DNA of 22,176 nucleotides, taken from a virus. Taxonomy: Duplodnaviria > Heunggongvirae > Uroviricota > Caudoviricetes. Positions 600 through 20,944 of this stretch are shown here, piece after piece. The stretch is taken from positions 1 to 22,176 of the IMG/VR virus record IMGVR_UViG_2585427971_000007, one strand, 5' to 3'. Both the position numbers and the translations under genes were made by a program. Positions within the stretch are counted from its first letter, which is position 1. Each line of letters starts with the position of its first letter. The notes below the pieces were generated by a model. The model worked only from the letters and a program-made list of their open reading frames with translations, did no database searches and was not told the origin of the DNA.

Positions 600-627
600 T
601 TGACTCATCGCGCCAGGTAAGTAGAAT
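600..627 (+). promoter_or_regulatory. sigma70-type promoter for the tRNA operon (TTGACT, 16-bp spacer, TAGAAT, GC-rich discriminator)
   Basis: TTGACT at 600-605 and TAGAAT at 622-627, about 75 bp upstream of the first tRNA. Confidence 0.55.
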
Positions 628-700
628 GCAACGCATCGAACGGCGGCACTGATTGCCAGACGATAATAAAATCAAGTGATTAACTGATTGCTTGATGAAT

Positions 701-776
<76 letters not shown>

Positions 777-829
777 GTTTAAAAGGCATCGGCGTCAGCG
801 GATGTCTGGCTGAAAGGCCTGAAGAATTT

Positions 830-903
830 GGCGCGTTAACAAAGCGGTTATGTAGCGGATTGCAAATCCGTCTAGTCCGGTTCGACTCCGGAACGCGCCT
901 CCA
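830..903 (+). tRNA. cysT: tRNA-Cys (anticodon GCA)
   Basis: 74-nt sequence ggcgcgttaacaaagcggttatgtagcggattgcaaatccg...ggttcgactccggaacgcgcctcca with GCA anticodon and CCA end. Confidence 0.92.
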
Positions 904-915
904 CTTTTTTCCCGA

Positions 916-1002
916 GCCCGGATGGTGGAATCGGTAGACACAAGGGATTTAAAATCCCTCGGCGTTCGCGCTGTGCGGGTTCAAGTCCCGCTCCGGGTAC
1001 CA
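916..1002 (+). tRNA. leuZ: tRNA-Leu (anticodon TAA), long variable arm
   Basis: 87-nt sequence gcccggatggtggaatcggtagacacaagggatttaaaatccctc...gggttcaagtcccgctccgggtacca; class II tRNA with TAA anticodon. Confidence 0.92.
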
Positions 1003-1043
1003 TGGGAAAGATAAGAATAAAATCAAAGCAATAAGCAGTGTCG

Positions 1044-1070
1044 TGAAACCACCTTCGGGTGGTTTTTTTG
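1044..1070 (+). terminator. rho-independent terminator of the tRNA operon (possibly bidirectional, also downstream of int)
   Basis: GC stem aaaccacc/ggtggttt with ttcg loop followed by a run of 7 T; A-rich on the 5' side. Confidence 0.8.
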
Positions 1071-1132
1071 TATCTTCTTTCTCATTTCCGAAGATGCGTC
1101 CGAAGATGATTTTTCTCTGGACGCATCATCAT

Positions 1133-2149: not shown

Positions 2150-2381
2150 TAAATATTGCTCCAAAATCAGGTTCATCATCTTTTCGCGTCGTCACCTCCT
2201 GTAAATTGCGAAATTTTATTGGGTTCATGAAATGGCCCCAGGTTGTTTTTGGGTGTCCGTCAGCCCTTTCCATGAAGAAAATTCCAGCCCGGCGAAGAGC
2301 CTCACATTGCTTTGATTTAAGTGGGCTTCCCGTCAGCTCGACCATTTCTTCTCTGGTGATTATGTCGTGATCGCTTTTCAT
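2118..2381 (-). CDS. Excisionase-like small DNA-binding protein
   Basis: 87-aa ORF immediately upstream of and overlapping the integrase start; RBS GAGGAAAGACC directly before the ATG. Confidence 0.6.
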   Translation of the reverse strand: MKSDHDIITREEMVELTGSPLKSKQCEALRRAGIFFMERADGHPKTTWGHFMNPIKFRNLQEVTTRKDDEPDFGAIFNGRKEKEPSR

Positions 2382-2541
2382 GGTCTTTCCTCATTATGTA
2401 GCTTATTGCGTCATCTGCCTTCTGGCAGGCACGGGCAATATCAGACTCGGTCAAAGTCTGTTTCCTGACGCTGGCCGACAGTCGACCAATTTTGATATCA
2501 AATGCGGAGAGCAGAGTTGCTCCCGGTTGCCATCGCAGCAT
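2317..2541 (-). CDS. Hypothetical small protein (74 aa from the ATG at 2541), C-terminus overlaps the xis start in another frame
   Basis: ATG at 2541 preceded by a GGAGG Shine-Dalgarno; basic low-complexity C-terminal tail makes the call uncertain. Confidence 0.4.
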   Translation of the reverse strand: MLRWQPGATLLSAFDIKIGRLSASVRKQTLTESDIARACQKADDAISYIMRKDHEKRSRHNHQRRNGRADGKPT

Positions 2542-2590
2542 TGTGATCCTCCGGTGTCTGGTGAATCGCAATGCTAGCGATGGTGAGTTT

Positions 2591-2773
2591 TTATTTCTGA
2601 TTAGGCGTAATCAGTTCTTGTGGGGTGAATGCCGATTTCTCCCGAGTGACCTTAATGTTTTCTGGCAGGTGTAGCCCAAGTTCGCAGCGGCTCCGTGCTT
2701 CAATAATGCCATTGGTACCATCGGCAAGTACCAGGTGAACCGCGTCACCACGCTTTAATGTGAGTTTAAGCAT
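2591..2773 (-). CDS. Hypothetical small protein (60 aa)
   Basis: Start codon overlaps the stop of the upstream 189-aa gene (ATGA overlap), suggesting translational coupling. Confidence 0.5.
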   Translation of the reverse strand: MLKLTLKRGDAVHLVLADGTNGIIEARSRCELGLHLPENIKVTREKSAFTPQELITPNQK

Positions 2774-3342
2774 TAGCGTATCCTCAGTGACCGTTCGCCG
2801 CGTTCCAGATGTGCGCCTGGTACCGGGTTTAATAACTCGGCTGGTGGTGTTTCTCCACGCGCCAGTATTTCGGCGGCAACCGCCTCCGCAGATTCAATCA
2901 CTTCTTTAATGGCTCGCTTGTTTGGTGTAATAACCGTTTCTACATCAACAAGTGACACGCCCTCATACTCATCCGGGATCTTATCTTTGCTATCGATAAT
3001 TACCCGGATAGCCCCCTGTGCATCAGTAAATGTGTTTTTTGCGGTTTTCAGTTTATCCAGGCCAGCAGCTTGCAGGCAGGTGAGCATATGCTTTCGAATT
3101 GCTTTTTCCTTGCCTTCAAAGGACGTCTTACGGGTTGCCAGGCGAGACATTTCTTCAGCGCAGGTATTGGCATTGCCCTGTAAATTACGGCAGATGACCA
3201 TCATGGCGTCCAGTTTGTCTCCCAGTTCTCCTTCCATGCCTTCAAGCGTGTCGGCGATCATCTCTGGCGTCAGTTCATCGGCGGTTTCTAACAGGTCAAT
3301 CAGACTGGCATATTCTTTTGCAATAGCGATAGCAGTGCTCAT
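2773..3342 (-). CDS. Phage early protein, Gam / Gp157-like (putative host-nuclease inhibitor); family assignment tentative
   Basis: 189-aa acidic protein with coiled-coil-like N-terminus; AGGAG RBS; start overlaps the stop of the upstream annealase gene; resemblance to Mu Gam / siphovirus Gp157 judged from memory only. Confidence 0.55.
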   Translation of the reverse strand: MSTAIAIAKEYASLIDLLETADELTPEMIADTLEGMEGELGDKLDAMMVICRNLQGNANTCAEEMSRLATRKTSFEGKEKAIRKHMLTCLQAAGLDKLKTAKNTFTDAQGAIRVIIDSKDKIPDEYEGVSLVDVETVITPNKRAIKEVIESAEAVAAEILARGETPPAELLNPVPGAHLERGERSLRIR

Positions 3343-5555
3343 GCTGTTTGCTCCTGTGCAGCGGTAAGGGCGGCGAGGCGTTCAGTTTTAATGTCGGTGA
3401 TACGGCGCAGACGTGATCCCAGATACGATGAATATTCTTTATCGCCTTTGGTTTCCGCTGCTTTCCTGTGTACATCCACTTCGCGGGCGATGAGGCCAAA
3501 TACCTTGTTTACTTCGTTGGCGGTTACCGCGGCGGCCAGCGTATTGGCAACGTTGATAAGCTTCTCATCCAGTTCCTTACGCAGACGGGTAGCATCTTCC
3601 GCATTCTCGCTGGCATTCTTGATATCAAACTCAGCTTTATTCCTCTGGCGGTATTCCGGATTGTCGTACAGGCCCATGAAAATATCGGCGCTGAATCCGA
3701 GAGGGGATAGCGCTTTCTTAACAGCATCCGTCCAGGATTTCTTCGGTGCTTCGCCGTCGCTTGTTGGTCCGTATTTAGTGTCGTAGATATAAGGTGTGCA
3801 TCCGTAAGCCTCGGACTCACCGCGTACCCCATTCAATATGTACCAGACTCTCACTTTCATGGTGTGGTGCATTTCACATAGGTACCCGCCAACACCGTCT
3901 TGAATCAGATCCCATTCTATTTTTTCACCAACCTGTTTTTTGCGAACTATTGGTGCGCCTTTATCAAAGCGCTCCTCCAGCACCTCTACCCCCCAGCCAA
4001 TACCAAATGGCCCAAATTCGCGAGTCGCTTTCATCGCTATATAAGTGCCGTTGATGGATGTGCCGCCGCCATTCTGAGAGAAAGCACTGGTGAAGCGCTC
4101 ATCGGTTTTGAATACGTTCTTCCACAATGCCAGGTTATCCGTGTCATCTGAGTCCTTTAACTCCGTTTCGATAGCTGAGATTGCATTCTGCCGCTTGTGC
4201 TCTTCGGCATGGATCCGCTCAACCAGCGCGTCAACGTTCTGCACCAGATCCTTTACCTGCTCGCTAAGTTGTTCTTGTGGAGGAGTCTCTTCTGCCAGGG
4301 TAATAGCTGCAGGTTCCCTCTGTGATACGGCGTTATTTTCAGGTACGTCATACACATGGCGAGGCGTGACAAACTGCTCACGCAACTGCTGCAAACTACG
4401 TTCTCCAGCATTTGCAGCTTCGCTTTTTTCGCCCTGATTTGAGGGTGTTTCTGACATCATCCCATCAATTGAGAATCGTCCGCCGCCGTGGTTGGTGACT
4501 TTTACATCATCCTTGGGTGCTGCTTCCTTTGGCTTCTCTTCAACAGCATTTGCATCACGCTGCCCGTTAGCTTGCAGCCAGTTGTCGATGTGACTGCGCA
4601 GGGATTGTGGGAAGTGGTACGTGTCTTTTGCGGGGGCGCTCTGAATAACACCGAATACTGATGCGCGGTCATAGGCAAGGATCTGATCCGTTGTGCGCAA
4701 GGCCATTGACCAGCGTTTAAAATCTTCCCTGTCCTGACTGATTATTTCGTCTGCCGCTTTCAGGATGCTGGGGGTGATTTTTTCCGGGGCAACAGGTAAC
4801 AGGGCGCAGGCAATTTCACGATCCAGAGTGGCGTGAGTCTGTTTGTAAGGACGTGCGGATGCTGTTTCTGGTTTTACCTCCGGCAGCATTTCATCTCGTT
4901 TACCGGGATTCTCTACCCATTTTTTTATAAATTTGGAGATAGTCCAACTGGTCGGGTTTTGTTCCTGGGTATCGCAACTTGCCAAAATTGCATGTACCAG
5001 ATTATTCAATCCAGCAATATGCATGTACTCGATGGGCTTACACGCCACCATGGCATCAAGAACGATGCGGTTAAACGCGTCAACCTCATCCTCACTGTCA
5101 GTATCACTGTTATCGAGCATCTCCAGGTATTCACGCGTCTGCACAAGCAATTCACTGTCGACTTCGTTGGCGTCGTGGCTGAACAGCAGAACGGCGGCGA
5201 ATCGTTCACGAGCCGGCAGTTTCATCAGGTCGCTAACCTGTGAGATATCTGCTGAACTGCAATCTGAATCAACAGGAGTGTTAACTACCCATTTTTCGCC
5301 ATCAAAACTGTGTTCTGTGGCAAACGTCTCATCAAACTCACCGACGCCTGGGCGCGGTTGGCCCGGGGCATCTTCCCAGATTTTAGGTTTGAAATAGTTG
5401 TCGCCGTGGTCAGGGTAGGCTTCCCACAATTTGCCGATGATGATGTTCTCGGCAACTTTTTTGTTAGGGGCGGCGATGGCGATGGCCAGCGCCGGGATCG
5501 CGCCGTTTTTGAGCGCGCCTTTTTTCGCTTCTAACAAGCCGTTAAAAATGGTCAT
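3339..5555 (-). CDS. Large early protein: N-terminal ~470 aa of unknown function fused to a C-terminal Rad52/Sak-like single-strand annealing domain
   Basis: 738-aa ORF with RBS GAGGAAAGACC; residues ~490-635 carry Rad52-family hallmarks (GGG...FGPFGIGWG ... GESEAYG ... TDAVKKALSPLGFSADIFMGLYD). Confidence 0.75.
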   Translation of the reverse strand: MTIFNGLLEAKKGALKNGAIPALAIAIAAPNKKVAENIIIGKLWEAYPDHGDNYFKPKIWEDAPGQPRPGVGEFDETFATEHSFDGEKWVVNTPVDSDCSSADISQVSDLMKLPARERFAAVLLFSHDANEVDSELLVQTREYLEMLDNSDTDSEDEVDAFNRIVLDAMVACKPIEYMHIAGLNNLVHAILASCDTQEQNPTSWTISKFIKKWVENPGKRDEMLPEVKPETASARPYKQTHATLDREIACALLPVAPEKITPSILKAADEIISQDREDFKRWSMALRTTDQILAYDRASVFGVIQSAPAKDTYHFPQSLRSHIDNWLQANGQRDANAVEEKPKEAAPKDDVKVTNHGGGRFSIDGMMSETPSNQGEKSEAANAGERSLQQLREQFVTPRHVYDVPENNAVSQREPAAITLAEETPPQEQLSEQVKDLVQNVDALVERIHAEEHKRQNAISAIETELKDSDDTDNLALWKNVFKTDERFTSAFSQNGGGTSINGTYIAMKATREFGPFGIGWGVEVLEERFDKGAPIVRKKQVGEKIEWDLIQDGVGGYLCEMHHTMKVRVWYILNGVRGESEAYGCTPYIYDTKYGPTSDGEAPKKSWTDAVKKALSPLGFSADIFMGLYDNPEYRQRNKAEFDIKNASENAEDATRLRKELDEKLINVANTLAAAVTANEVNKVFGLIAREVDVHRKAAETKGDKEYSSYLGSRLRRITDIKTERLAALTAAQEQTA

Positions 5556-5585
5556 TGGTCTTTCCTCATTACAGGTCAGTGGTTT

Positions 5586-5906
5586 TTAGTAGGGGAGCTC
5601 ATCGGTATCTGGCGTGTATTCGATGCAAAGTAACTGCTGGATTTTGTCATCGATAGCAGCAATACGCTGTTGGGCGTCGGCGACTGTTTTCTGTTTTTGT
5701 TCACGCAGTTGCTCGACCTGTAAACCGATGATGTCGATTGGCTCGGGCTGGTTAACGGTAATTTCAATTTCGCGGCTTTCCAGAAGGATGTACCTGTCTG
5801 GAAAATTTTTTGACATATCAACAGTCGCAACAAGCAGCTTTTCGTGGCTGAAAGTTGAAGTTGCATAATGAATAAAGAGTGTTACTGGGATGGTGCGCGC
5901 TTCCAT
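5586..5906 (-). CDS. Hypothetical phage early protein (106 aa)
   Basis: ATG preceded by an AAGGAG RBS; first gene of the leftward early operon. Confidence 0.6.
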   Translation of the reverse strand: MEARTIPVTLFIHYATSTFSHEKLLVATVDMSKNFPDRYILLESREIEITVNQPEPIDIIGLQVEQLREQKQKTVADAQQRIAAIDDKIQQLLCIEYTPDTDELPY

Positions 5907-6759
5907 AGCGACTCCTTGGTAATGTATACTCAGAGCCGATCAGCGAATATTGATCAGCTTCCATAGCGTCAGTGTCGTTGGTCTTTCCTCATCACAAGTT
6001 TGGTCACTTGTGATAAATCCGAATGGTTTGGTCGCCGTTCGGGGTAACTGGCCCGCCTTGTGCGGGTCTTTTGCTATCTAAAGGGTGCCGGTTACGTTTC
6101 CGGCGTCGTTATGTTTCCATTACGACCGTACAGGGCTGGTCAGGCCCGGGCTGGTCTTTCCTGTTTTGAGCTGGTCAGGCTCATGGTCAACGCTGGTCAG
6201 GCGTGGTACTTCCTCCGGTCTTTCCCTGGTGTCACGCTGCGGGTTTGGCCTCTCCTGTTGGGGACTCAGGCACAGCGATAAAACCTGGCTGTGTGAAAAA
6301 ATGGCCCATCGTGCGGACTGGGCAAAGACTAAACACAGCAAATTGATGATGGGCGCCCGGAATCGAACCGGGTAACGGGCAGGGAGTTCCCGTTAAACAC
6401 CTGTTCACCACAACCGGGAGCGCACTCCGCCATTTCAAAATTTAACGACAAAGCTCAAAGTTGAGTCGATGAAGTGCGCTCTCGTGTTGTAGCCAGGACT
6501 CTTCCCTGGTGGTCACACCGTATCGCCTTGATGGTGAATCAATCGCTCATACCTGGCTGTGGCTTGCACATTCCGGCTACCTGCTATGGAGACAACGCGT
6601 TAAGGCTCCGCTTCCATCCAGACCGCTTCGACACATGTGCCATATGCCGGTGAAGTCTTTCCCTCTGTCACCGTGTTGGCGCCGACGCGCAAAATTTGGT
6701 GCCGTCTTTCCGGCTGTCAGAACGTGTTTCTGAACAACTGCCGCTGGGTAAGCGTTGTT

Positions 6760-6870
6760 GATGAAAGTGACTTTACAATTTGTATTTGTAATGGTCAATG
6801 TGTTTTTAAAAAATAATTTGTAGTGAGGGGCAAAAAAATATTCACTGTGTAAAGGTGTTTTTGTGTTAGG
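6760..6870. promoter_or_regulatory. AT-rich putative OL/pL-type operator-promoter region downstream of the repressor gene
   Basis: Repeated TTTGTA(A/T) motifs (caatttgtatttgtaatgg, aataatttgtagtgagg) resembling those between the repressor and cro genes. Confidence 0.4.
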
Positions 6871-6995
6871 GGAAAGTTGCATGCCAGCAGCGGCTGGCCT
6901 GGAAATTTGAACTGAACTATTTTGTCTGGTTTTTGGCTTCAAGTAGTTCTTTTAGCAGTAGATCGAAGTGCTCTCTTTTTCTTTTAGCTCATTGA

Positions 6996-7328
6996 TTAAT
7001 TTATTTTTTCGCTCTCAGGCAGTCCTCTGAATAGTTGCAGTAGAGCCTGTTCTTGCGGGGTTAGTTCTTGATTGTAATTACCCGGGTGTAGTGTGGATTC
7101 ATCCAAATATTCCCCTTCATTCATGAAGAAAAAATGAACAGGGTATCCGGTCACTTTTGCTAGCTTGTCTAATTTATCTTTTCTTGGAGTTACCCCATTA
7201 CACCATGCCTGAACTGATTGAGCCGTAACCCCAATATGGCGAGCTAACTCAGATTGAGACCAGCCTAAGTCTTTTAGAATCCGTTGTAGTCGGCTAGCAA
7301 AAGCCATGTTTTTCGTTTTTGTGTTCAT
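6996..7328 (-). CDS. Phage repressor, short XRE-family helix-turn-helix protein with no peptidase domain
   Basis: HTH signature WSQSELARHIGVTAQSVQAWCNG; divergent from a Cro-like gene; start uncertain (alternatives at 7343 TTG, 7328 ATG, 7307 ATG). Confidence 0.8.
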   Translation of the reverse strand: MNTKTKNMAFASRLQRILKDLGWSQSELARHIGVTAQSVQAWCNGVTPRKDKLDKLAKVTGYPVHFFFMNEGEYLDESTLHPGNYNQELTPQEQALLQLFRGLPESEKIN

Positions 7329-7343
7329 ACCGTAAGGATACAA

Positions 7344-7426
7344 GGTTTAATTGTAGGGAGCATTGCAAATATAATTTGTAATTACAGTTATTGTTTGTAA
7401 TGATGACGCGGACACAAGGAGTCCAT
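7344..7426. promoter_or_regulatory. Divergent promoter/operator region of the immunity switch
   Basis: Intergenic region between divergent repressor and cro genes with repeated TTTGTAAT motifs (aatttgtaattacag, ttgtttgtaatgatg) and TTGCAA -35-like hexamer. Confidence 0.55.
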
Positions 7427-7657
7427 ATGGATAAACAACTGCAAGACAAAATTCTTTCCGTAATGAGTCAATCCGAGTTAGGGCGGCGATTAGGGAAAAA
7501 ACCACAAACGGTAAGCCTCTGGTTCAAAGGACGGGTTCCCGGTGAAGAGGTTTTGCGCACATCTGAAGCTCTTGAATGGCGCGTGACCCCTCATGATCTT
7601 AGACCGGATCTTTACCCAAACCCAGATGACAGCTTGCCTAAAACGGAAGCAGCTTAA
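7427..7657 (+). CDS. Cro/Apl-like HTH regulator (76 aa from the ATG at 7427)
   Basis: AAGGAG RBS 5 nt upstream of the ATG; HTH motif SQSELGRRLGKKPQTVSLWFKG; divergent from the repressor. Confidence 0.8.
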   Translation: MDKQLQDKILSVMSQSELGRRLGKKPQTVSLWFKGRVPGEEVLRTSEALEWRVTPHDLRPDLYPNPDDSLPKTEAA

Positions 7658-7715
7658 CTGTTGGTGAGCCCCAAATCTGATTAAGCGTAATCAATTTTTA
7701 GCGACAGGAGACGCT

Positions 7716-8192
7716 ATGGAAAACCAAGAGGAATTACAAAAAGAGATTTTGACCTGGGCGGCAAGGGCAGGGCAGGAACTCGTCACGATTGAAATCTGCC
7801 GGGCCTGGTTCAGTCAGGGACGCAATGATGAGTTGAGACTACATGAATTTGAGGACGCGGACGGCAACGTGGACTGGAGAGCCATCAACAACAATCGGCA
7901 GAAAATCTTTCGCTGGTTACGTGGCGAGACAACGGCGGCGCGCCGAAAAACTCAGGTGCTGGCCAGTGTGATGAAAGCCGTGCTACCCGCAGAACGGCGG
8001 GCACGTCTGGAGTCGCCGGGCGATCCCGTTTTGCTGGCAACGCTGGCGGCAAAAGAAGGGGTGGAAGCGATTAACGCTGTACATCTCCACTTCGCGCCAG
8101 AGTTAACTATTCAGGAAATTGACGAAGCAATAGCGGCGCTGGTAGCGACGCGAGGAGCAGTGATACGCACTGCGCAAGACCACCATGCATGA
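7716..8192 (+). CDS. Phage regulatory protein, CII-like / YdaT-like (tentative)
   Basis: 158-aa ORF with AGGAG RBS directly downstream of cro; functional call rests on position in the switch operon only. Confidence 0.45.
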   Translation: MENQEELQKEILTWAARAGQELVTIEICRAWFSQGRNDELRLHEFEDADGNVDWRAINNNRQKIFRWLRGETTAARRKTQVLASVMKAVLPAERRARLESPGDPVLLATLAAKEGVEAINAVHLHFAPELTIQEIDEAIAALVATRGAVIRTAQDHHA

Positions 8193-8231
8193 GCGCCTGA
8201 CCAGCGTTTAACTTATACCGAGGAAAGACCG

Positions 8232-8456
8232 ATGTTAAGACATATTGACCGCATTACCTGGCGTAACGGCTGGCACCTGAATGGACGCCCGGCACATGTT
8301 GCAGAGATCCGCCCCATATTCGATGGCCGCGTCGCAGCTGCACGTTCTGTATGGGAAAAGTACGAAGAAGAAAAAGCGAAACTGCGTGAGCAAAATCTCT
8401 CTGGCGCTGCCTATGAGGCTGGCTGTCGCGTTCTCTCAGAGGCTTTGGGCATATGA
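8232..8456 (+). CDS. Hypothetical protein (74 aa)
   Basis: ATG preceded by GAGGAAAGACC RBS; last gene of the rightward early operon before the convergent junction. Confidence 0.5.
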   Translation: MLRHIDRITWRNGWHLNGRPAHVAEIRPIFDGRVAAARSVWEKYEEEKAKLREQNLSGAAYEAGCRVLSEALGI

Positions 8457-8597
8457 ACATCCTCCCGTTACTTGATAGACCCATAGCCTTCCAGAGAAGT
8501 TTTATCCGTCTTGAAATGGTGATGCGCCGCGCGATAAATGCACTCTATCTTGTGCGATAAATGGCATCCACGCGGCGTTTCATTATTTGAAAAAGAA

Positions 8598-9170
8598 TTA
8601 CATTTCAGGTTGCGTTATGACAGTCCCAACAGGGTGATAGCGGTAGATCGTTGACAGTCCAATATCATAGATAATTGCCAGCCGCTTTCTGTCATACCCT
8701 TTCTGGAGCAATCTTGCGATCTGCTCATGCTGCTCCTTCGTCAGTTTCGGGCGACGTCCTCCAACTCTTCCTTGTGCTCGCGCAGCAGCCAGTCCTGCCA
8801 GCGTGCGCTCAACTATCAGTTCACGCTCCATTTCTGCCAGTGCACCCATCATATGAAAAAAGAACCTTCCCATCGGAGTGCTGGTATCGATTGAATCCGT
8901 CAGACTGCGAAAATTGACACCTTTTGCGCGTAGCTCTTCTGTGAGAGCAATGAGGTGTTTCATTCTTCTACCCAACCGATCCAGCTTCCAGACCACCAAT
9001 GTATCCCCTCTTTTAAGGCACTTTAAAGCGCGTTTCAGGCCTGGTCGTTCCGACTTGGTTCCGCTCATTTTGTCCTCAAAAATCTGTTCACATCCTGCGC
9101 ACATTAATGCATTGCGTTGCAAATCTGTGTTTTGGTCATTTGTTGACACACGTATGTAGCCAATCAGCAT
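8598..9170 (-). CDS. Serine DNA invertase, Pin/Gin/Hin/Cin family (190 aa)
   Basis: N-terminus MLIGYIRVSTNDQNTDLQRNAL with catalytic Ser and a C-terminal HTH; AAGGGAG RBS; lies adjacent to the invertible fibre segment; start set at the internal ATG at 9170 rather than the longer ORF to 9299. Confidence 0.92.
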   Translation of the reverse strand: MLIGYIRVSTNDQNTDLQRNALMCAGCEQIFEDKMSGTKSERPGLKRALKCLKRGDTLVVWKLDRLGRRMKHLIALTEELRAKGVNFRSLTDSIDTSTPMGRFFFHMMGALAEMERELIVERTLAGLAAARAQGRVGGRRPKLTKEQHEQIARLLQKGYDRKRLAIIYDIGLSTIYRYHPVGTVITQPEM

Positions 9171-9226
9171 TAAAAATACTCCCTTTTGAGTGGTTAAAGT
9201 ACTGAGATAATGTGGGGAGGATTTGA

Positions 9227-9252
9227 GAGATAAACGTTGGTTTGGGGGAAGG
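9227..9252. promoter_or_regulatory. Putative invertase crossover site, left (gix/hix-like)
   Basis: Junction where inverted-repeat identity begins; reverse complement reads tcccccAAACCAAcgtttatctctc, resembling Din-family sites (AAACC..GGTTT). Confidence 0.5.
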
Positions 9253-9436
9253 CTCTGCACTGCCTGTTGGTGTGCCTGTTCCATGGCCCACCGCCACACC
9301 GCCAGCAGGCTGGTTAAAGTGCGACGGGCGCGCCTTTACAAAAGAACAATATCCTGTTCTGGCCAGAGTCTACCCGACCCTCCGTCTTCCCGATTTACGC
9401 GGTGAGTTTATCCGTGGATGGGACGACGGGCGCAAG
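9237..9436. repeat. Inverted repeat, left copy (~200 bp, 3 mismatches in the first 50 bp, otherwise identical) encoding the shared part of the fibre C-terminus
   Basis: Direct comparison with the reverse complement of 10656-10852. Confidence 0.9.
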
Positions 9437-9715
9437 ATTGACGAGGGGCGTAAGTTGCTTTCATGGCAGAAAGGTACACTGGTCGGCGGTCATGACGATA
9501 ACGATTCTTCGCTTGATATCTCGTACATGAGTAACGGAAATAATATTGACTATGGCGGCGATAAGGTGTTTGCGGGGAATTACCGTAGCGATTATTTGTG
9601 GTACGTAATTCTGGGAGGAACAAACAGTCGCGCAAAAGCCGAATTAAACGGAGCATTCTTTAACATAACCCGCCCCCGCAATATCGCGTTTAACTATATC
9701 GTGAGGGCGGCGTGA
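9242..9715 (+). CDS. Alternative tail-fibre C-terminal cassette (promoterless, silent in this orientation)
   Basis: First ~62 aa identical to the corresponding part of the expressed fibre (GEGSALPVGVPVPWPTATPPAGWLKCDGRAF...), then divergent; ends with the conserved NYIVRA motif; opposite strand to the fibre. Confidence 0.8.
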   Translation: MGEGSALPVGVPVPWPTATPPAGWLKCDGRAFTKEQYPVLARVYPTLRLPDLRGEFIRGWDDGRKIDEGRKLLSWQKGTLVGGHDDNDSSLDISYMSNGNNIDYGGDKVFAGNYRSDYLWYVILGGTNSRAKAELNGAFFNITRPRNIAFNYIVRAA

Positions 9716-9721
9716 TACCGT

Positions 9722-10336
9722 TCAACTGGCAAGTGCCAGTGGCGCTTCCGGCCAGCTGATTTCAGGTGCCGTGCTGATATCCAGTGCGTTCAGCTCGTCG
9801 ATATAATCCAGCACGGCGTTCAGTTTTGCCGTTTCTTCTGGTGTCAGACTGCGACCAGCACGCAGTTTGAGGTTGATAAGATCGACTGACGCCATCGCCT
9901 GTTTCACCCGTTGCTGGCGTTGCTGTCTGGCAACCTCCAGTTCTGCGGCTCGCTGCCGTTCAGTATCGGTTACCCACGCCTCACCGTTCCAGGTATCCCA
10001 TGGCGTGGCTGGCTGTTTTGTGGTGGTGTCCGCCGGGTAATCACCCGGTTGGGTAATCAGAACAGGGTTACCGTTCTCCGTGCTGTATACCGTCTCGCCG
10101 CGGTGATCAGGCACATGCTCCCACCCGTTCAGCGTGGCAGTCCGGCAAACCACGTAACCCGAAATTGCCTCCGGCGGTGCATCGGCGCACGAATGTGCCG
10201 GAGTACCCACCCCAAGGGCGAGATACTCCACAGAGGATGAGGTGTATTCCCGGGTTTCCTCGTCATAGTGATATACAGTGATATCGCCCGCTACAGTGGC
10301 GATACCGTTTTCATCCAGAACTGCAGTGTTACTCAT
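9722..10336 (-). CDS. Tail fibre assembly protein (P2 gpG / Mu U-like)
   Basis: 204-aa ORF whose start overlaps the fibre stop (TAATG); position and composition typical of assembly chaperones. Confidence 0.8.
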   Translation of the reverse strand: MSNTAVLDENGIATVAGDITVYHYDEETREYTSSSVEYLALGVGTPAHSCADAPPEAISGYVVCRTATLNGWEHVPDHRGETVYSTENGNPVLITQPGDYPADTTTKQPATPWDTWNGEAWVTDTERQRAAELEVARQQRQQRVKQAMASVDLINLKLRAGRSLTPEETAKLNAVLDYIDELNALDISTAPEISWPEAPLALAS

Positions 10337-12345
10337 TAAACTGCCCTCACAATGTAATTAAGTGCAATGCTACGGGGTCTGACAGTGATACCCTTCGCAT
10401 ACCCGCTTCTGATAGAGGTCAGAATAGTAGCCTGCATACCATTGTCTGACATTGCCACGACAGGATCGCTGAATGTTGTCCCGTCCGGCATTTTAAAGCT
10501 GCCCTCACGAAGGTCTGTAATGGAATCTTCATTGTTGAATCCCATGCCGACTATCCCCGAGGTTCCCGTAGTGTCCTGGTTATAATAATCCAGCATTGCT
10601 GTTCTTAACAGCGTTGCCCCTTGTGCGGACAGCAACTTACGTCCTGTATCAACTTTGCGCCCGTCGTCCCATCCACGGATAAACTCACCGCGTAAATCGG
10701 GAAGACGGAGGGTCGGGTAGACTCTGGCCAGAACAGGATATTGTTCTTTTGTAAAGGCGCGCCCGTCGCACTTTAACCAGCCTGCTGGCGGTGTGGCGGT
10801 GGGCCATGGAACCGGTACACCAACAGGCAATGCAGAGCCTTCCCCCAAACCAAGGTAATTGAGGACATCTTTTATACTGCCCTTAGCGATAATAGCGCGA
10901 CCAATAGCTGTAAGGGTTGCCAGCGCTGCGCGGTCTGCTCCGGTAAAATAAGGCAACCGATCTGCTGCAGTGGCAAGTCCTGCCAGAGCAGTGAGCGTGG
11001 CATCTGCCGGTTGTTTTCCGTTTGCCAGATCGTATGCAGCCTTGACCGCTTTCGGTGTGGCGGCCAGTATTTCAGACGTGCTGTTGATAGCACTGCTCAG
11101 TTGTACGGTGCCTTTTGCCGTCAGCGAGGCAGCAGGCACTCCCGTTATCTGACTCCACGGGTGAGTGTGGCTGACGGGCGCCTTGCCGGCTGCAAGGTCG
11201 TATGCAGCCTTGACCGCCTTCGGCGTGGCAGCCTCAATTTCTGATTGACTGTCCGTGGCGCTGCTCAGTTGTACGGTGCCTTTTGCCGTCAGTGAAGCCG
11301 CAGGCACTCCCGTTATCTGACTCCACGGGTGAGTGTGGCTGGCAGGCGCCTTGCCGGCTGCCAGGTCGTATGCAGCCTTGACCGCTTTCGGTGTGGCGGC
11401 CAGTATTTCAGACGTGCTGTTGATGGCACTGCTCAGTTGTACGGTGCCTTTTGCCGTCAGCGAGGCAGCTGGCACTCCCGTTATCTGACTCCACGGGTGA
11501 GTGTGGCTGACGGGCGCCTTGCCGGCTGCAAGGTCGTATGCAGCCTTGACCGCCTTCGGCGTGGCAGCCTCAATTTCTGATTGACTGTCCGTGGCGCTGC
11601 TCAGTTGTACGGTGCCTTTTGCCGTCAGTGAAGCCGCAGGCACTCCCGTTATCTGACTCCACGGGTGAGTGTGGCTGGCAGGCGCCTTGCCGGCTGCCAG
11701 GTCGTATGCAGCCTTGACCGCTTTCGGTGTGGCGGCCAGTATTTCAGACGTGCTGTTGATGGCACTGCTCAGTTGTACGGTGCCTTTTGCCGTCAGCGAG
11801 GCAGCTGGCACTCCCGTTATCTGACTCCACGGGTGAGTGTGGCTGACGGGCGCCTTGCCGGCTGCAAGGTCGTATGCAGCCTTGACCGCCTTCGGCGTGG
11901 CAGCCTCAGTTTCTGATTGACTGTCCGTGGCGCTGCTCAGTTGTACGGTGCCTTTTGCCGTCAGTGAAGCCGCAGGCACTCCCGTTATCTGACTCCACGG
12001 GTGAGTGTGGCTGGCAGGCGCCTTGCCGGCTGCCAGGTCGTATGCAGCCTTGACCGCTTTTGGTGTGGCGGCCAGCGTTTCAGAGGTGCTGTTGGTGGCA
12101 CTGCTCAGTTGGGTGAACCCCTTAGCTGTCAGTGTCGCGTCCGGGTGGTTACGGGAACGTACGTGTTCAGCCAGTGACTGTGCGGCTTCCTCCGTTTTCT
12201 TCTTCAGCCATTTCGTCCTGTTTGCCAGTTGCCGGGGGGCTCGATTTGATATCCCGTCTGCACCACCCAGAACCGGATCTGATGTCTCCAGTTGATAGAT
12301 ATTTTCTTCCCACTTTTCTGTTTCATTCAGGTTTCCCATAATCAA
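10336..12345 (-). CDS. Tail fibre protein (P2 gpH-like), C-terminus lying in the invertible segment
   Basis: 669-aa ORF; N-terminus and the motif HPDATLTAKGFTQLSSATNSTSETLAATPKAVKA recalled from P2 gpH-type fibres; internal tandem repeats. Confidence 0.9.
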   Translation of the reverse strand: MIMGNLNETEKWEENIYQLETSDPVLGGADGISNRAPRQLANRTKWLKKKTEEAAQSLAEHVRSRNHPDATLTAKGFTQLSSATNSTSETLAATPKAVKAAYDLAAGKAPASHTHPWSQITGVPAASLTAKGTVQLSSATDSQSETEAATPKAVKAAYDLAAGKAPVSHTHPWSQITGVPAASLTAKGTVQLSSAINSTSEILAATPKAVKAAYDLAAGKAPASHTHPWSQITGVPAASLTAKGTVQLSSATDSQSEIEAATPKAVKAAYDLAAGKAPVSHTHPWSQITGVPAASLTAKGTVQLSSAINSTSEILAATPKAVKAAYDLAAGKAPASHTHPWSQITGVPAASLTAKGTVQLSSATDSQSEIEAATPKAVKAAYDLAAGKAPVSHTHPWSQITGVPAASLTAKGTVQLSSAINSTSEILAATPKAVKAAYDLANGKQPADATLTALAGLATAADRLPYFTGADRAALATLTAIGRAIIAKGSIKDVLNYLGLGEGSALPVGVPVPWPTATPPAGWLKCDGRAFTKEQYPVLARVYPTLRLPDLRGEFIRGWDDGRKVDTGRKLLSAQGATLLRTAMLDYYNQDTTGTSGIVGMGFNNEDSITDLREGSFKMPDGTTFSDPVVAMSDNGMQATILTSIRSGYAKGITVRPRSIALNYIVRAV
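10656..10852. repeat. Inverted repeat, right copy (partner of 9237-9436)
   Basis: Reverse complement matches 9237-9436. Confidence 0.9.
10841..10866. promoter_or_regulatory. Putative invertase crossover site, right (gix/hix-like)
   Basis: tcccccAAACCAAGGTaattgagga at the boundary between the constant fibre region and the inverted repeat. Confidence 0.5.
11010..12140. repeat. Tandem array inside the fibre gene: ~6.7 copies of a 168-bp (56-aa) unit in two alternating variants (336-bp super-period)
   Basis: Protein repeats ASLTAKGTVQLSSA..ATPKAVKAAYDLAAGKAP(A/V)SHTHPWSQITGVP; plus-strand shadow ORFs recur every 336 bp with identical sequence. Confidence 0.9.
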
Positions 12346-16156: not shown

Positions 16157-16359
16157 GGGGCAATATCCTCTTCTGTACGGGCTTCTTCAGTCTCAATCAC
16201 CGGGATCAGTAACAACAGCCCGGAGGGCAGCACCGGCGTGATGGCCACGTGCGGATTGGCGGCAATAATCCGGGGATAGCCCAGCGGGTCACCGTAGTAC
16301 TGCCATGCCAGCGAATCCCAGCGCTCTCCGTCACGGGTAACATGTTCAAGAAACATCAC
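16144..16359 (-). CDS. Tail protein X-like (LysM-like, P2 gpX)
   Basis: 71-aa ORF with motif DSLAWQYYGDPLGYPRIIAANP. Confidence 0.75.
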   Translation of the reverse strand: MMFLEHVTRDGERWDSLAWQYYGDPLGYPRIIAANPHVAITPVLPSGLLLLIPVIETEEARTEEDIAPWLR

Positions 16360-17240
16360 ACACTCCTCGTCAGTATTCTGGCGGCCATTGCACTTAATCC
16401 CGGAGACATGCGGTTGAATGCTGTGCCGGCGGCGTTAAGCTGCCCGGAAACGGTATCCAGAGCACCTGCAATATTTCTTTTGTCCACACCACTCAGCGCA
16501 GACTGTGCCTGCTGTACATACGTGGCTGCTTCGCTGGCTGTTCTGGCCAGACTGATGGCATCGGGCATGGATTCAGAGAGTGCGTTAAACGCCGGAACAC
16601 TTTTCCCCAGAGCCCCGGAGATATTACCCAGTCCGCTCATCAGCCCCGGCACACGGGTCAGTGCGACAACGGGGTTATCCTTCATTTTCTGTGTCACCCG
16701 AACGGCGCTGATAGTGGTCTGGAGTACAGACTGCGCCTGTTTCGCATAGTTGACGCCGTTGCGGATGAACTGCGCCACCCCTGAAGGTGAAGGAATGGCA
16801 CCGGAGACCGCCCCGACACCCGGGAGCTTCGTGCGTATTGCCGGTGGTTGCAGAGGATTTTTCGGATCACCGGTGTATTCCCGGAGAGACACGGTGGCAC
16901 TGACAGCCAGCACGTTACCGGTGCTGTCTGTCTGCTCGCTGGTTGCGGTCACATCGGTAATCACGAACCAGCCACGATAGTCACCGTTGCCGAAGACCAG
17001 CGCCAGTGCCTGATGGGCTTTCATGGCTGTTCGCAGTCTCGCCAGCTCCACATCGGGTACACAATAATGCTGATGGAAAACCAGAGTTATCTGGATTTCG
17101 TCCAGCCTGTCGCCGACGAACTGCAGGCCAGGCTTACCCCCGATGCGGGCATGCTCCGCATAATCGACGCCGAACGTGGCCTCGAAGCCGTCCCAGTAGG
17201 TAATCAGCTCAAACTCAATATCACCCAGTACGGCAAACAT
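16356..17240 (-). CDS. Tail protein with gpU-like N-terminal domain and C-terminal extension
   Basis: 294-aa ORF between tape measure and gpX/gpD genes; family call tentative. Confidence 0.55.
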   Translation of the reverse strand: MFAVLGDIEFELITYWDGFEATFGVDYAEHARIGGKPGLQFVGDRLDEIQITLVFHQHYCVPDVELARLRTAMKAHQALALVFGNGDYRGWFVITDVTATSEQTDSTGNVLAVSATVSLREYTGDPKNPLQPPAIRTKLPGVGAVSGAIPSPSGVAQFIRNGVNYAKQAQSVLQTTISAVRVTQKMKDNPVVALTRVPGLMSGLGNISGALGKSVPAFNALSESMPDAISLARTASEAATYVQQAQSALSGVDKRNIAGALDTVSGQLNAAGTAFNRMSPGLSAMAARILTRSV

Positions 17241-17491
17241 CAGCGGTACTCCTTACGTTGTTTCTGAGCCAGCAGACGCTCCAGCATTTTTTCCAGCTCA
17301 TGCAGGCTCATATTCAGGGCGCCAGTCAGTCCGGCAGGCGCTGTGGTTTCCCTGCCATTGAGGAAAAACTGAGGATTAAAGCTGACCTGGATACCACCAG
17401 ACGTTCCACCGCCGGTTGCAGCTGCACCACGGCCTGAATATCCGGCAGCCAGGATTTCAGGCGAGGGGATACGGGGAACATCCGGTGTCAT
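17240..17491 (-). CDS. Small hypothetical tail-module protein (83 aa), Gly/Ala-rich
   Basis: Start overlaps the tape-measure stop (ATGA); low-complexity composition lowers confidence. Confidence 0.45.
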   Translation of the reverse strand: MTPDVPRIPSPEILAAGYSGRGAAATGGGTSGGIQVSFNPQFFLNGRETTAPAGLTGALNMSLHELEKMLERLLAQKQRKEYR

Positions 17492-20451
17492 CTCATTTGC
17501 CAGACGTTGCCCTGGTAAAATCGATGCCCGGGTGGAGAGCGGAATAGCGGCATGGAAGACAAACTATTGATTACGGCTCCGATCGCATTTTTAGCAGACG
17601 ACATAAACCCATTGATATCGGGCAACGGCATACTGAAGCGAACACCTGAAGTGTTATCCCGTATTTCTGGCCCCTGAATGCTCACGGGCATTCTGGGGAG
17701 CAGTTCACTGGCCATTCGCTGCCCGGCCAGAGCTGCAAGCGGAGTGGTCCGCTGCAGGCCAATGGCGGCCCCCTGCGCGATATTGTCACCAAAGCCCATA
17801 AACACGCGGCTCGGCGAATGAATGCCCAGCTTTTCGCTGAACCAGCCACTGATGCTGTCACCCATTCCGGTTACACTGGATTTGAGCGACTCCCATTTGT
17901 TTTTGATACCGTTAATCAGACCGTCGACAAGATGGCCACCGAAGTCGGTGAACTTTGCCGGCAGATCAACACCAAGATATTTCAGCGCAGCTGCAAAGGC
18001 TTTATAGAGCAGACCTGCCGGCGACCAGTTAATCAGCAGCTTACCAGTTCCCGCGATACCGCCGTTAAAGGCTTCCTGAATGTCAGCCCAGCACTGTTTA
18101 AACCAGCTACTGATGCTGTCACCCATTCCGGTTACACTGGATTTGAGCGACCCCCATTTGTTTTTGATACCGTTAATCAGACCGTCGATAAGATGGCCAC
18201 CGAAGTCGGTGAACTTTGCCGGCAGAGCAACGCCGAAATATTTCAGCGCAGCCGCAAAGGCTTTATAGAGCAGGCCTGCCGGCGACCAGTTAATCAGCAA
18301 CTTACCAGTTCCCGCGATACCGCCGTTAAAGGCTTCCTGAATGTCAGCCCAGCACTGTTTAAACCAGCTACTGATGCTGTCACCCATTCCGGTTACACTG
18401 GATTTGAGCGACCCCCATTTGTTTTTGATACCGTTAATCAGACCGTCGATAAGATGGCCACCGAAGTCGGTGAACTTTGCCGGCAGAGCAACGCCGAAAT
18501 ATTTCAGCGCAGCCGCAAAGGCTTTATAGAGCAGGCCTGCCGGCGACCAGTTAATCAGCAACTTACCAATTCCCACAATGCCGCCGTTAAAGGCTTCCTG
18601 AATGTCTGCCCAGCGCTGTTTAAACCAGCCACTGACTGCCCCCCAGTTGCGGTAGATAAGGTAAGCTGCTGCCGCGACAGCGGTGATAACGAGACCGATG
18701 GGATTCATCATCAGCGCACGTCCAATCCAGAGAACAGCACGTCCGGCGAGCATAATTCCGCGAACCAGCCCCCCGGAGAGCACGCCACTCAGTGTTCTGG
18801 CTCCTTTGGCGACGGCGCTAAATCCGGTCACCAGCCAGCGGAGCTTACCGCCTTGCCCCAGTGCGAGCGACAGACGAAGCCAGTTGGCCCGAAGTAAAAC
18901 AGCATTTTTCCAGACACTTACAAAGGGGGAAATAAGGAGATTCAGCCCCAGTTTGAGACCAACAGTCGCTATCTTAATCGCAAGGAGCGCACTGATGAGC
19001 TTAAAAGCCCCACTGACAAATTGCGGGTGAGTCGCTACCCAGTGTTTTGCCCCCTGAATGAGTGGAAGCAGTTCCTGAGTCAGAGAAATAAAAGATGGAG
19101 CTAATTGATCGCCCAGCGTAATTGCCAGATCACGACTGCTGACCATAAGTGCTTTAGTGGCTTCAAGGGGAGATTTCAGCCGCTGATCATAAGCACTGGC
19201 AAGCAAATCGTTATCCGCAGCCCTGAGAGCACCGGCACGGATCTCTCGATATCTGTCCATGTTGGCCAGCATCGGGCGGATAAATGCCATGACCTGCATA
19301 TCCGCGAACATATCGCCCAGACCAAAGTTTTTCGCCAGAGCCTGAAGTGCCTCATCTCTTGCCGTATCATTCTTTATTTTCATGGCTGATTTGAAGCCGG
19401 CCAGCGCTTCGGGGCTTTTGGCATTGAGGTAACGTTCTATAACACTCAACATCCCTTCAATCGGAGAGATCCCCGCAGCTTTATAACTCGCAATAGATCC
19501 CTGCAAATCAATACCCAGATCAGCAAACTGTTTCTGAGTATCGCGGGCAAAAATTTTGGTAAGAAAGTTTTTAAAATTATTGGCTGCTTCGTCGGTGGAA
19601 CCTGCACCGATTTTTGCTATCTGGAGACTGGCCCCGATTTCAGCAACAGCCTCTTTTCCACTGGCAATACCCGCCATCATTGGGGCCAGGGACTGCATCC
19701 ACTTGACCTGATCCGGGATTTCAAATGACCCCTGGTCACCGGCATAAGCCATAATATTCTGAACGGCACCAAAATCTCTGGCCGCACCTTTCAGGGAGTT
19801 TTGCCAGACTGCGGCCACTTTTGCCCAGTCCTGAGCAGACGTGCGTGTTGCCGTTGCCGCGCGGGCAATATCCGGCATCAGAAAACCGATATCTGACACA
19901 TTATCAATATTGTCGCTGATGAGTGAACCCACCGCCTCCTGCAGCTCATCCTGATACTGATTGTATTTAAGCGCCCAGCCTTTTATCTGTCCGGCAAGTG
20001 CATCCCGCGTTTTATTGTCATATTTTGCGGTGATCGACATATCAATCATTTTGTCCTGAAAAGACATGGACTGCTGAACGGCAGGGGAAACCGTATGATA
20101 AACAGTCTGTGCCATGCCATACGCTTCAATCCCCTGACCATACAGCGCCATGCGGTTAGCTTTCAGCGCATCACTGGTAGCGGATGCCGCTGACAGACGG
20201 CGCTGCTGGCGCTCAATTTGCTCCATGGTGCGGCTTACCCGCAGCAGCTCGCTGTTGAGATGCTGCATCCGGGAAGAACCCAGTTGACCATAACGTTCTG
20301 TTGCACGGGTTAAAGCGTTCTGACGTTCCTGCAGGCGGCGTGAGGTATCGCTCAGGGAATCAAGCGCACGGCGGGTACCGCTCATTGCAGAACGGAATGT
20401 GCTACCAATCATCCCGCCGATAACAACGCCGACTGAAAACTGTCCCGACAT
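17488..20451 (-). CDS. Tail tape measure protein
   Basis: 987-aa ORF with GGAGG RBS, coiled-coil-rich N-terminus, hydrophobic central segments, internal tandem repeats; position after the chaperone pair. Confidence 0.9.
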   Translation of the reverse strand: MSGQFSVGVVIGGMIGSTFRSAMSGTRRALDSLSDTSRRLQERQNALTRATERYGQLGSSRMQHLNSELLRVSRTMEQIERQQRRLSAASATSDALKANRMALYGQGIEAYGMAQTVYHTVSPAVQQSMSFQDKMIDMSITAKYDNKTRDALAGQIKGWALKYNQYQDELQEAVGSLISDNIDNVSDIGFLMPDIARAATATRTSAQDWAKVAAVWQNSLKGAARDFGAVQNIMAYAGDQGSFEIPDQVKWMQSLAPMMAGIASGKEAVAEIGASLQIAKIGAGSTDEAANNFKNFLTKIFARDTQKQFADLGIDLQGSIASYKAAGISPIEGMLSVIERYLNAKSPEALAGFKSAMKIKNDTARDEALQALAKNFGLGDMFADMQVMAFIRPMLANMDRYREIRAGALRAADNDLLASAYDQRLKSPLEATKALMVSSRDLAITLGDQLAPSFISLTQELLPLIQGAKHWVATHPQFVSGAFKLISALLAIKIATVGLKLGLNLLISPFVSVWKNAVLLRANWLRLSLALGQGGKLRWLVTGFSAVAKGARTLSGVLSGGLVRGIMLAGRAVLWIGRALMMNPIGLVITAVAAAAYLIYRNWGAVSGWFKQRWADIQEAFNGGIVGIGKLLINWSPAGLLYKAFAAALKYFGVALPAKFTDFGGHLIDGLINGIKNKWGSLKSSVTGMGDSISSWFKQCWADIQEAFNGGIAGTGKLLINWSPAGLLYKAFAAALKYFGVALPAKFTDFGGHLIDGLINGIKNKWGSLKSSVTGMGDSISSWFKQCWADIQEAFNGGIAGTGKLLINWSPAGLLYKAFAAALKYLGVDLPAKFTDFGGHLVDGLINGIKNKWESLKSSVTGMGDSISGWFSEKLGIHSPSRVFMGFGDNIAQGAAIGLQRTTPLAALAGQRMASELLPRMPVSIQGPEIRDNTSGVRFSMPLPDINGFMSSAKNAIGAVINSLSSMPLFRSPPGHRFYQGNVWQMR
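17840..18640. repeat. Tandem array inside the tape-measure gene: ~3 copies of a 261-bp (87-aa) unit
   Basis: Protein repeats WFKQCWADIQEAFNGGIAGTGKLLINWSPAGLLYKAFAAALKYFGVALPAKFTDFGGHLIDGLINGIKNKWGSLKSSVTGMGDSIS; plus-strand shadow ORFs recur every 261 bp. Confidence 0.9.
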
Positions 20452-20526: not shown

Positions 20527-20630
20527 CTATGATTTGTCGCCGTACTCGCTTTTTATTTGCTCTTCAGCCTGCTCCAGCCACATCTCCAGATCGTCAGTAT
20601 CGAGGGCATCAATCTCCCCCGGCTGAAACC
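20527..20630 (-). other. Putative frameshift extension (E'-like) of the tail assembly chaperone
   Basis: Second frame stays open past the chaperone stop and encodes an acidic tail (DALDTDDLEMWLEQAEEQIKSEYGDKS); G-run CCGGGGGAG followed by UGA at the overlap. Confidence 0.55.
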
Positions 20631-20944
20631 GGAACCATCTCGCCAGCAGCCCCTGCGCCTGCGTCAGCGCCCTGGTTGCTCTCACCCATCCCCGTGATGA
20701 GCTGAAATCGTTTCTGTAACTGCAGGTAATCAGCCAGATCCATATTGTCGAGATCTTCCGGGAGAAGACCAGTACTGCGGGCAATCAGCGGTTCGTCCCA
20801 GTCTGCCGGGTTTTTGCTGATTTTGCGCACCTGCTTCAGGTCTTTTACCGTCAGGCGTTTCAGTTCAACCAGCTCAATTCTGGTGCCTGCAGCAGTGGTG
20901 AAGGGATAAGACAATTTAAAAGTATCGGATGGGGTCTGTGACAT
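20609..20944 (-). CDS. Tail assembly chaperone (P2 gpE-like)
   Basis: 111-aa ORF with CAGGAG RBS immediately upstream of the tape-measure gene, overlapped by a second ORF in another frame. Confidence 0.75.
   Translation of the reverse strand: MSQTPSDTFKLSYPFTTAAGTRIELVELKRLTVKDLKQVRKISKNPADWDEPLIARSTGLLPEDLDNMDLADYLQLQKRFQLITGMGESNQGADAGAGAAGEMVPVSAGGD

Follow-up and report, generated by a model that had tools for sequence, protein, structure and literature searches.

The stretch of viral DNA analysed here (22,176 nucleotides; IMG/VR record IMGVR_UViG_2585427971_000007, positions 1 to 22,176; Caudoviricetes; referred to as the window) contains part of a transposable BcepMu-like myophage prophage of Escherichia coli with a P2-type contractile tail. 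The gene for its tail tape measure protein (TMP) carries a head-to-tail array of three 261-bp units, each coding for 87 amino acids (aa). We consider it likely, with a probability of roughly three in four, that an 87-residue helical segment has indeed been triplicated, in frame and recently, and that the units lengthen the tail. An earlier note on this DNA had made the effect on the tail conditional on copy number being variable, and it is variable: near-identical prophages carry one, two or three units.

The array within the tape measure gene

Tandem Repeats Finder reports the array at positions 17840-18635, with a period of 261 bp, 3.0 copies, 96% matches, 0% indels and a score of 1473. A repeat finder places three in-register copies at 17840, 18101 and 18362 (spacing 261 and 261 bp; identity 100/96/94%). 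The units are 94-98% identical without indels, and their MAFFT alignment is gap-free with a mean column identity of 98%, a similarity far above chance. The array lies on the minus strand within the open reading frame (ORF) 17488..20451, and its translation gives three consecutive 87-aa units, in frame and free of stops, with the pattern KQ[RC]WADIQEAFNGG...GDSIS[SG]WF. Repeat finding, translation and alignment together delimit the array to 17839..18635 (minus strand). In gene order, unit 1 occupies 18361-18621 (TMP residues 611-697), unit 2 18100-18360 (residues 698-784) and unit 3 17839-18099 (residues 785-871), all on the minus strand. The residues that precede unit 1 (SGWF) are similar to those closing each unit, and homology therefore continues for another 14 nucleotides upstream, to 18635. 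The three units can be told apart by 6, 10 and 16 single-nucleotide polymorphisms (SNPs).

The earlier note had described a 261-bp triplication at 17840-18640 inside the tape measure gene, made of nearly identical in-frame 87-aa units. The three copies were recovered at 17840-18635 within that gene, and both translation and the gap-free alignment bear out the units. Its placing of the array in the C-terminal third of the protein is not strictly right: the array covers 57-81% of the intact 1070-aa protein, i.e. the third quarter. The description should also be amended in that the gene lies on the minus strand and that the ORF in the window encodes 987 aa, cut by a 1-bp deletion.

The assignment of the gene as a tape measure, also made in the earlier note, agrees with three observations. 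The ORF matches Pfam PF10145 (PhageMin_Tail; E = 1.9e-20, 74 bits against a gathering cut-off of 33.2) over residues 159-340, corresponding to 19432..19977 on the minus strand. Its relatives are named tail tape measure protein in GenBank and RefSeq, with homologues labelled 'phage tail tape measure protein, TP901 family'. Finally, the gene stands between a tail assembly chaperone gene and homologues of gpU, gpX and gpD.

An assembly artefact, i.e. a repeat mis-expanded in the source assembly, had been named in the earlier note as the finding that would undo its claim. We searched the TMP gene against 5426 complete E. coli genomes, of which 635 matched. The same three-unit form, with a span of 2965 bp and 99.7-99.9% identity over the whole gene, was present in 58 of the 60 best-ranked genomes. 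Genomes with this window-type allele come from different laboratories, hosts and countries and were finished independently, and a second three-unit allele occurs on a backbone that is ~97.4% identical. Recombination accounts exactly for the pattern of SNPs between the units. Signs of low base-level accuracy in the window would fit an artefact (five single-base homopolymer indels and one 3-bp indel against 2 substitutions in 4.6 kb, relative to the prophage of E. coli AR_0015), and so would the GenBank record of Escherichia phage PhiKM (PQ738613; L001 6605-6704), where a gap of 100 Ns falls exactly in the array and indicates that the region breaks some assemblies. However, homopolymer errors do not create 261-bp units. 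With the three-unit allele present in dozens of finished genomes and with copies distinguishable by SNPs, the artefact was rejected; we regard it as hardly credible, and the array stands on the evidence of the same three-copy allele in ~58 complete E. coli genomes.

The gap in the PhiKM record hides the length and unit number of its tape measure, which has at least two units. In RefSeq, the three-unit TMP gene is represented by two 'incomplete, partial' pseudogenes in AR_0015 (L008 19753-22965, NZ_CP024862) and in strain 18044 (L010 11753-14965, NZ_AP022326). Translation of the AR_0015 gene yields an intact ORF of 1070 aa, and the same gene (99.9% identical) is annotated as a single coding sequence (WP_021551891.1) in C 237-04 and Z0117EC0055. 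The pseudogene labels are an annotation artefact caused by the extra repeat. The array is thus a trap for assembly and annotation alike, as seen in the PhiKM sequencing gap and in the splitting of an intact three-unit gene by RefSeq in some genomes.

The copy of the TMP gene read in the window (17488..20451, minus strand) is truncated by a frameshift, the last 21 of its 987 residues being out of frame. The site is a 1-bp deletion in a short homopolymer at 17548..17551, where the plus strand has GG against GGG in relatives and the frame shifts after TMP residue 966. The orphaned C-terminus forms an 83-aa ORF at 17240..17491 (minus strand), which has the same sequence as the final 83 residues of the 1070-aa protein encoded intact by relatives and matches phrog_28 (tail length tape measure) and phrog_5690 (positions 817-893 of 907). 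Every full-length genome match spans one base more than the TMP query from the window. The frame through the conserved TMP C-terminus, interrupted in the window, is intact (1070 aa) in AR_0015, in L004 and in others. The indels that separate the window from AR_0015 between 17548 and 22107 are located at 17548-17551, 21276, 21635, 21816, 21854 and 22107; they frameshift the TMP gene (17548), an 82-aa ORF (21276), the tube gene (21635, 21816) and the sheath gene (21854). Across 11.5 kb the two sequences differ by six indels and seven substitutions, and the remaining genes align undisrupted.

The TMP deletion and the other homopolymer indels are probably sequencing errors rather than decay. If the frameshifts were instead real, the window prophage would be a decaying remnant, its array functionless and the repeat number a neutral relic. 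The frameshifts relative to AR_0015 would suit such a remnant. The exact-product look-up found the frameshifted 987-aa protein in no public assembly on record, and the window prophage is inserted within another prophage at a site seen in no complete genome. Yet with seven substitutions and six indels in 11.5 kb, and with five of these indels being single-base changes in short homopolymers, the pattern of differences is one of sequencing error and not of natural decay. All other genes align to AR_0015 without disruption, and even real mutations in the window would not count against the array functioning in the many relatives that are intact. That the array is such a relic seems to us doubtful.

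Copy number and history of the units

Copy number was read in a sample of 60 genomes evenly spaced among the 635 matching complete E. coli genomes. Three units (span 2965 bp) were found in 13 genomes, two units (2704 bp) in 40 and a single unit (2443 bp) in one. One genome has a partial copy (2753 bp), one a fragment of 308 bp, and the other four carry a distant TMP lineage (2196-2205 bp). Intact ORFs in fetched examples measure 3213, 2952 and 2691 bp, and the comparison of TMP length with repeat number across related prophages, which the earlier note had called for, gives 1070 aa for three units, 983 aa for two and 896 aa for one. Carriers include strain FCI23 (NZ_CM172721) with one unit, isolate AF3 (NZ_OZ547117) with two, and C 237-04 (NZ_CP109921) and Z0117EC0055 with three. 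The same three lengths make up the full-length protein classes among the 120 homologues listed. Entries of 883 and 933 aa were rejected as additional copy-number states, being internal-start gene calls of two- and three-unit alleles. Four or more units were not seen among 120 genome matches and the 120 homologues listed, with ~520 further genomes uninspected.

Two other length variants were observed, each in one cluster only. P0066 (995 aa) has a 12-aa in-frame duplication (GDSISSWFKQCW) exactly at the unit junction, and P0048 (1084 aa) has an in-frame duplication of ~101 aa that extends over the second hydrophobic segment and the beginning of unit 1. Both could be real or assembly errors.

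The differences between units point to the way in which the third copy arose. At the DNA level, unit 2 of the window equals positions 1-58 of unit 3 followed by positions 59-261 of unit 1, with 0 mismatches. In a two-unit allele from isolate AF3 (L002), whose gene is ~99% identical, unit 2 is exactly unit 3 of the window and unit 1 is one base off unit 1 of the window. A one-unit allele (L003) is the reciprocal chimera, following unit 1 to column 88 and unit 3 from column 109. Such chimeras are to be expected if the units of a two-unit gene undergo unequal homologous recombination or slipped-strand replication, and we infer a mechanism of this kind. No private mutation was found in the third copy of the window, which is recent. 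The first duplication is older: orthologous units of different lineages are only 3 nucleotides apart, whereas units 1 and 3 differ by 15-19 nucleotides, which argues that it predates the split of the sampled E. coli lineages. In L007, a distant lineage, the unit is 28-29 nucleotides away from unit 1 and unit 3 alike.

For a comparison of backbones, the array was removed and the 809 remaining TMP residues were compared. Three-unit alleles occupy at least 3-4 backbones, which differ from one another by 9-35 residues. For three of them there is a two-unit allele whose backbone is identical or differs by 1 residue; for the fourth, P0043, the nearest two-unit allele is 8 residues away. The two one-unit alleles lie on two different backbones, and the middle units of the three-unit groups differ in which end derives from which parent. 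Private SNPs in the middle unit of the three-unit allele L004 recur in the common two-unit alleles L005 and L006, which therefore look like contractions of a three-unit array at two different crossover points. Chimeras that differ from backbone to backbone show that units were gained and lost repeatedly and independently, several such changes being needed even if the transfer of whole arrays mimics some of them.

The proposed history would begin with a duplication from one to two units before the sampled E. coli lineages diverged. The third unit of the window would have been added very recently to a two-unit allele, by unequal homologous recombination or replication slippage, leaving a middle unit that takes its first 58 nucleotides from the distal unit and the remainder from the proximal one. 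The same process would work in both directions and recurrently, giving rise to the alleles of 896, 983 and 1070 aa present in the population.

Pfam gives no domain for the unit itself. When the unit was aligned to the remainder of the TMP, no older copies were significant against shuffled controls (z = 0.7 and 1.6), and ancient internal repetition was rejected. An aromatic periodicity of 11 or 18 residues, as in the repeats of the Belcaid and TP901-1 type, was rejected as well, the aromatic power spectrum having no peak at 11, 18 or 29 residues. Hydropathy along the unit has a sharp 3.6-residue period; the unit is amphipathic, with 15% glycine. AlphaFold2 (AF2) without an alignment predicts an almost wholly helical array, in which the helix is broken once in every unit, always at the same position. 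The mean predicted local distance difference test score (pLDDT) was 40, and the three-dimensional model was discarded; the structure prediction proposed in the earlier note thus gave a low-confidence secondary structure and was unusable in three dimensions. Matches to solved structures were marginal (TMP gp57 of Staphylococcus phage 80alpha, E = 0.02; 9m8o Gp14, E = 0.005-0.04), and these candidate relatives were set aside as too weak beyond a conserved LGIHSPSR motif.

In phage records, the unit was found once per record in 152 cases, mainly in phages of Burkholderia, Ralstonia, Klebsiella and Pseudomonas and with <60% identity (~50% in those listed). Three close enterobacterial relatives in these records (PhiKM, KP12 and Phi06_2974 B) are 83-95% identical. 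When a single unit was searched in a set of 1.84 billion representative proteins, 658 matches reached E <= 0.001. Taking the best 150 of these, 23 of 92 full-length proteins have at least two tandem copies. Periods in these distant arrays are ~76 residues (the most frequent), 87 or 113, with 20-71% identity between neighbouring copies. Distant tape measures of this kind (P0122-P0199) contain 2-4 older tandem copies, P0122 having four, spaced 76 residues apart. The periods hint at preferred duplication lengths in distant tape measures. Amplification of the segment is recurrent in this TMP family, the E. coli array being young and still polymorphic.

Tail length and alternative roles of the array

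Experiments on lambda, TP901-1 and T4 have established that TMP length sets tail length (summarised in PMC13585406, PMC3271669 and PMC5009743). In TP901-1, tails became proportionally shorter through deletion of repeats as well as of a hydrophobic segment next to them (PMC5099701). Phage phiE255 has a TMP of 870 aa with one unit and a tail of 143 nm (PMC2920897). This one-point calibration gives 0.164 nm per residue, compared with 0.15 for an ideal helix, and on this basis each 87-residue unit would add ~13-14 nm of tail. The tails predicted for one, two and three units are roughly 147, 161 and 176 nm. The ring rise in contractile tails is ~4 nm, and a unit would correspond to ~3-4 rings of tube and sheath. 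In the mechanism that we propose, the tape measure would run through the tail tube in an extended and largely helical form, polymerisation of tube and sheath would stop at its end, and the tail would grow by the above ~13-14 nm with each added unit. We infer the helical extended state of the protein.

The window-type three-unit allele was found at five different insertion sites. It adjoins ybjC in E. coli AR_0015, cysM in the O25:H4 strain 18044, dgcM in the O2:K2:H1 strain C 237-04 and a truncated irp2 in the dog isolate Z0117EC0055, and in the window it lies inside a lambdoid prophage. Since each site of a transposable phage most simply represents a separate lysogenisation, virions with the 1070-aa tape measure would have been infectious. 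In Z0117EC0055 (L012 1-2517, NZ_CP098203) the prophage end directly adjoins irp2 (yersiniabactin HMWP2), which is annotated without its N-terminus. This suggests that the phage inserted into this virulence gene and disrupted it.

Upstream of the array, the TMP has a first, strongly hydrophobic segment at 18928..19020 (residues ~478-508) and a second hydrophobic segment immediately before the array at 18652..18717 (residues ~579-600), both on the minus strand. Given this neighbourhood, the units could be real and variable but serve mainly as a functional module of the distal TMP, for example one that spans the periplasm or forms a membrane channel during DNA ejection. Copy number would then tune penetration, with tail length at most a by-product. 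The array directly follows the two segments, which may be membrane-active, and precedes the conserved LGIHSPSR motif, itself a weak match to the C-terminal part of the solved 80alpha TMP (E = 0.02). The amphipathic and glycine-rich (15%) character of the unit would also suit such a module, and the work on TP901-1 assigned roles in infection to distal repeats and hydrophobic regions (PMC5099701). In the same phage, however, repeat deletions and hydrophobic-segment deletions both shortened the tail in proportion, so that adjacency to hydrophobic segments is no exemption from measuring. The unit lacks a Pfam domain, and nothing found points to an enzymatic or binding module. We think it unlikely that penetration is the main role of the units.

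A more far-reaching proposal is that the one-, two- and three-unit alleles are a natural series, kept polymorphic by selection within a single E. coli phage lineage that is active and widely distributed. The tail would be tuned in ~14-nm steps to the thickness of the host capsule or O-antigen, and the 261-bp repeats would act as a contingency switch, with frequent unequal recombination re-sampling tail lengths. This we regard as quite improbable.

Several points weigh against a triplication that lengthens the tail. The effect on tail length in this lineage is a prediction. To our knowledge there is no direct TMP-length experiment for P2/BcepMu-type contractile tails, the evidence from myoviruses being that from T4. 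The array occupies the part of the TMP nearest to the baseplate, downstream of the two hydrophobic segments, and might have a role in membrane penetration instead of, or besides, measuring. Structural support is weak (AF2 pLDDT 40), and across distant relatives copy number correlates with TMP length at only r = 0.22. Homologous exchange between co-resident prophages could move whole arrays and so inflate the count of independent events. Finally, if the frameshifts in the TMP gene, the tube and sheath genes and the small ORF are real, the prophage copy in the window cannot build a tail.

The prophage and related tape measures

The genes surrounding the TMP gene form a P2-type contractile-tail cassette, in the order sheath, tube, small ORF, tail assembly chaperone, TMP, gpU, gpX, gpD, gpV, gpW, gpJ, gpI, tail fibre and fibre assembly. 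The gpU-like tail protein gene (16356..17240, minus strand) lies directly downstream of the TMP gene and lends support by synteny. The chaperone gene, the usual partner of a tape measure gene, encodes 111 aa (20609-20944; with a downstream extension, 20527..20944; minus strand). The last codons of its zero frame read gcc ggg gga gat tga, and the extension (IDALDTDDLEMWLEQAEEQIKSEYGDKS; region 20527-20620, minus strand) is open in the +1/-2 frame and not in the -1 frame. This arrangement plausibly fits the -2 frameshifting used by the tail chaperone pair of phage Mu (PMC5009743).

The closest isolated phage is PhiKM, classified in Bcepmuvirus. The transposase end of the prophage lies outside the window and was read from AR_0015, where the far end encodes an rve-type 'integrase catalytic domain' protein (transposase) and an ExeA-family protein. 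Because of these features, together with the P2-type cassette and the five different insertion sites, the element is read as a transposable BcepMu-like myophage prophage. It ends at ~8520 (junction ~8519/8520), and positions 1-8519 of the window belong to a common lambdoid prophage with an integrase (1133-2179), a Gam-like protein (2773-3342), an exonuclease (3339-5555), a CII-like protein (7716-8192) and a YdaT region. Since the junction is in no complete E. coli genome, the transposable phage sits within another prophage, at a site known from the window alone.

A Gin/Cin-type DNA invertase gene (8598-9299) adjoins an invertible tail-fibre segment at 9234-10856. The segment is bounded by 229-bp inverted repeats (9234-9462 and 10628-10856; 95% complementary), and its orientation is opposite to that in AR_0015. 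The E. coli lineage differs in this respect from BcepMu, which has been described as having no tail-fibre inversion system (PMC2771037). A second tandem array was found at 11023-12111, within the tail fibre ORF 10336-12345 (minus strand); it consists of 6.5 copies of a 168-bp (56-aa) unit, or 3.2 copies of 336 bp at 98% identity, and its translation follows the pattern TAKGTVQLSSAT..AATPKAVKAAYDLAAGKAP.SHTHPWSQITGVPAASL. Related prophages have annotated tail fibre genes of 1629 to 2004 bp, compared with 2010 bp in the window, and because of these differences in length the copy number of the tail-fibre array may also vary.

The TMP array resembles several known systems. As in the protein studied here, which is predicted to be largely helical, the TMP of TP901-1 is a long helical molecule whose hydrophobic segments precede a repeat region. 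Phages that had lost repeats in frame were viable and had proportionally shorter tails, and the authors proposed that repeats ease the natural gain and loss of length (PMC5099701). TP901-1, however, is a siphophage of a Gram-positive host with 11/18-aa units marked by aromatic residues and with engineered variation, whereas the present unit has 87 aa, the polymorphism is natural and the tail contractile. The 11-aa-repeat tape measures of Belcaid, Bergeron and Poisson (2011) likewise comprise natural in-frame alleles of tandem units, with a history that can be reconstructed from unit-specific mutations (PMC3271669). Our case differs from that type in its 87-aa unit without 11-residue aromatic periodicity and in having 1-3 copies that are 94-98% identical. 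Individual crossover points can be read directly because the copies are so few and so similar.

BcepMu and phiE255 (Bcepmuvirus) and P2-like phages of Burkholderia share with the E. coli lineage the tail module, the TMP family and a homologous 87-aa segment, ~50% identical and at a similar relative position. In these tape measures (870 aa in phiE255) the segment occurs once, whereas in the E. coli lineage it is amplified to 2-3 copies. The rule that TMP length sets tail length holds for lambda gpH in a non-contractile and for T4 gp29 in a contractile tail (PMC13585406, PMC5009743). Those results were obtained with engineered mutants, and the likeness is one of principle, not of shown sequence relationship.

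We found no prior description of this 87-aa polymorphism in the searchable literature, which is incomplete. Copy-number-variable internal repeats are a known kind of feature in tape measures; new here is a large segmental duplication of 87 residues in a contractile-tailed transposable coliphage, present as a natural polymorphism with readable crossovers. Variation of TMP length by internal duplication is textbook phage biology, and no concept is changed. What the lineage provides is a natural series of near-identical tape measures (896, 983 and 1070 aa, with rarer +12-aa and +101-aa forms) in a contractile-tailed, inducible E. coli phage, for a type of tail (P2/BcepMu) in which the length rule has hardly been tested. 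As crossovers are resolved to the single nucleotide, the rate and direction of unit gain and loss become measurable.

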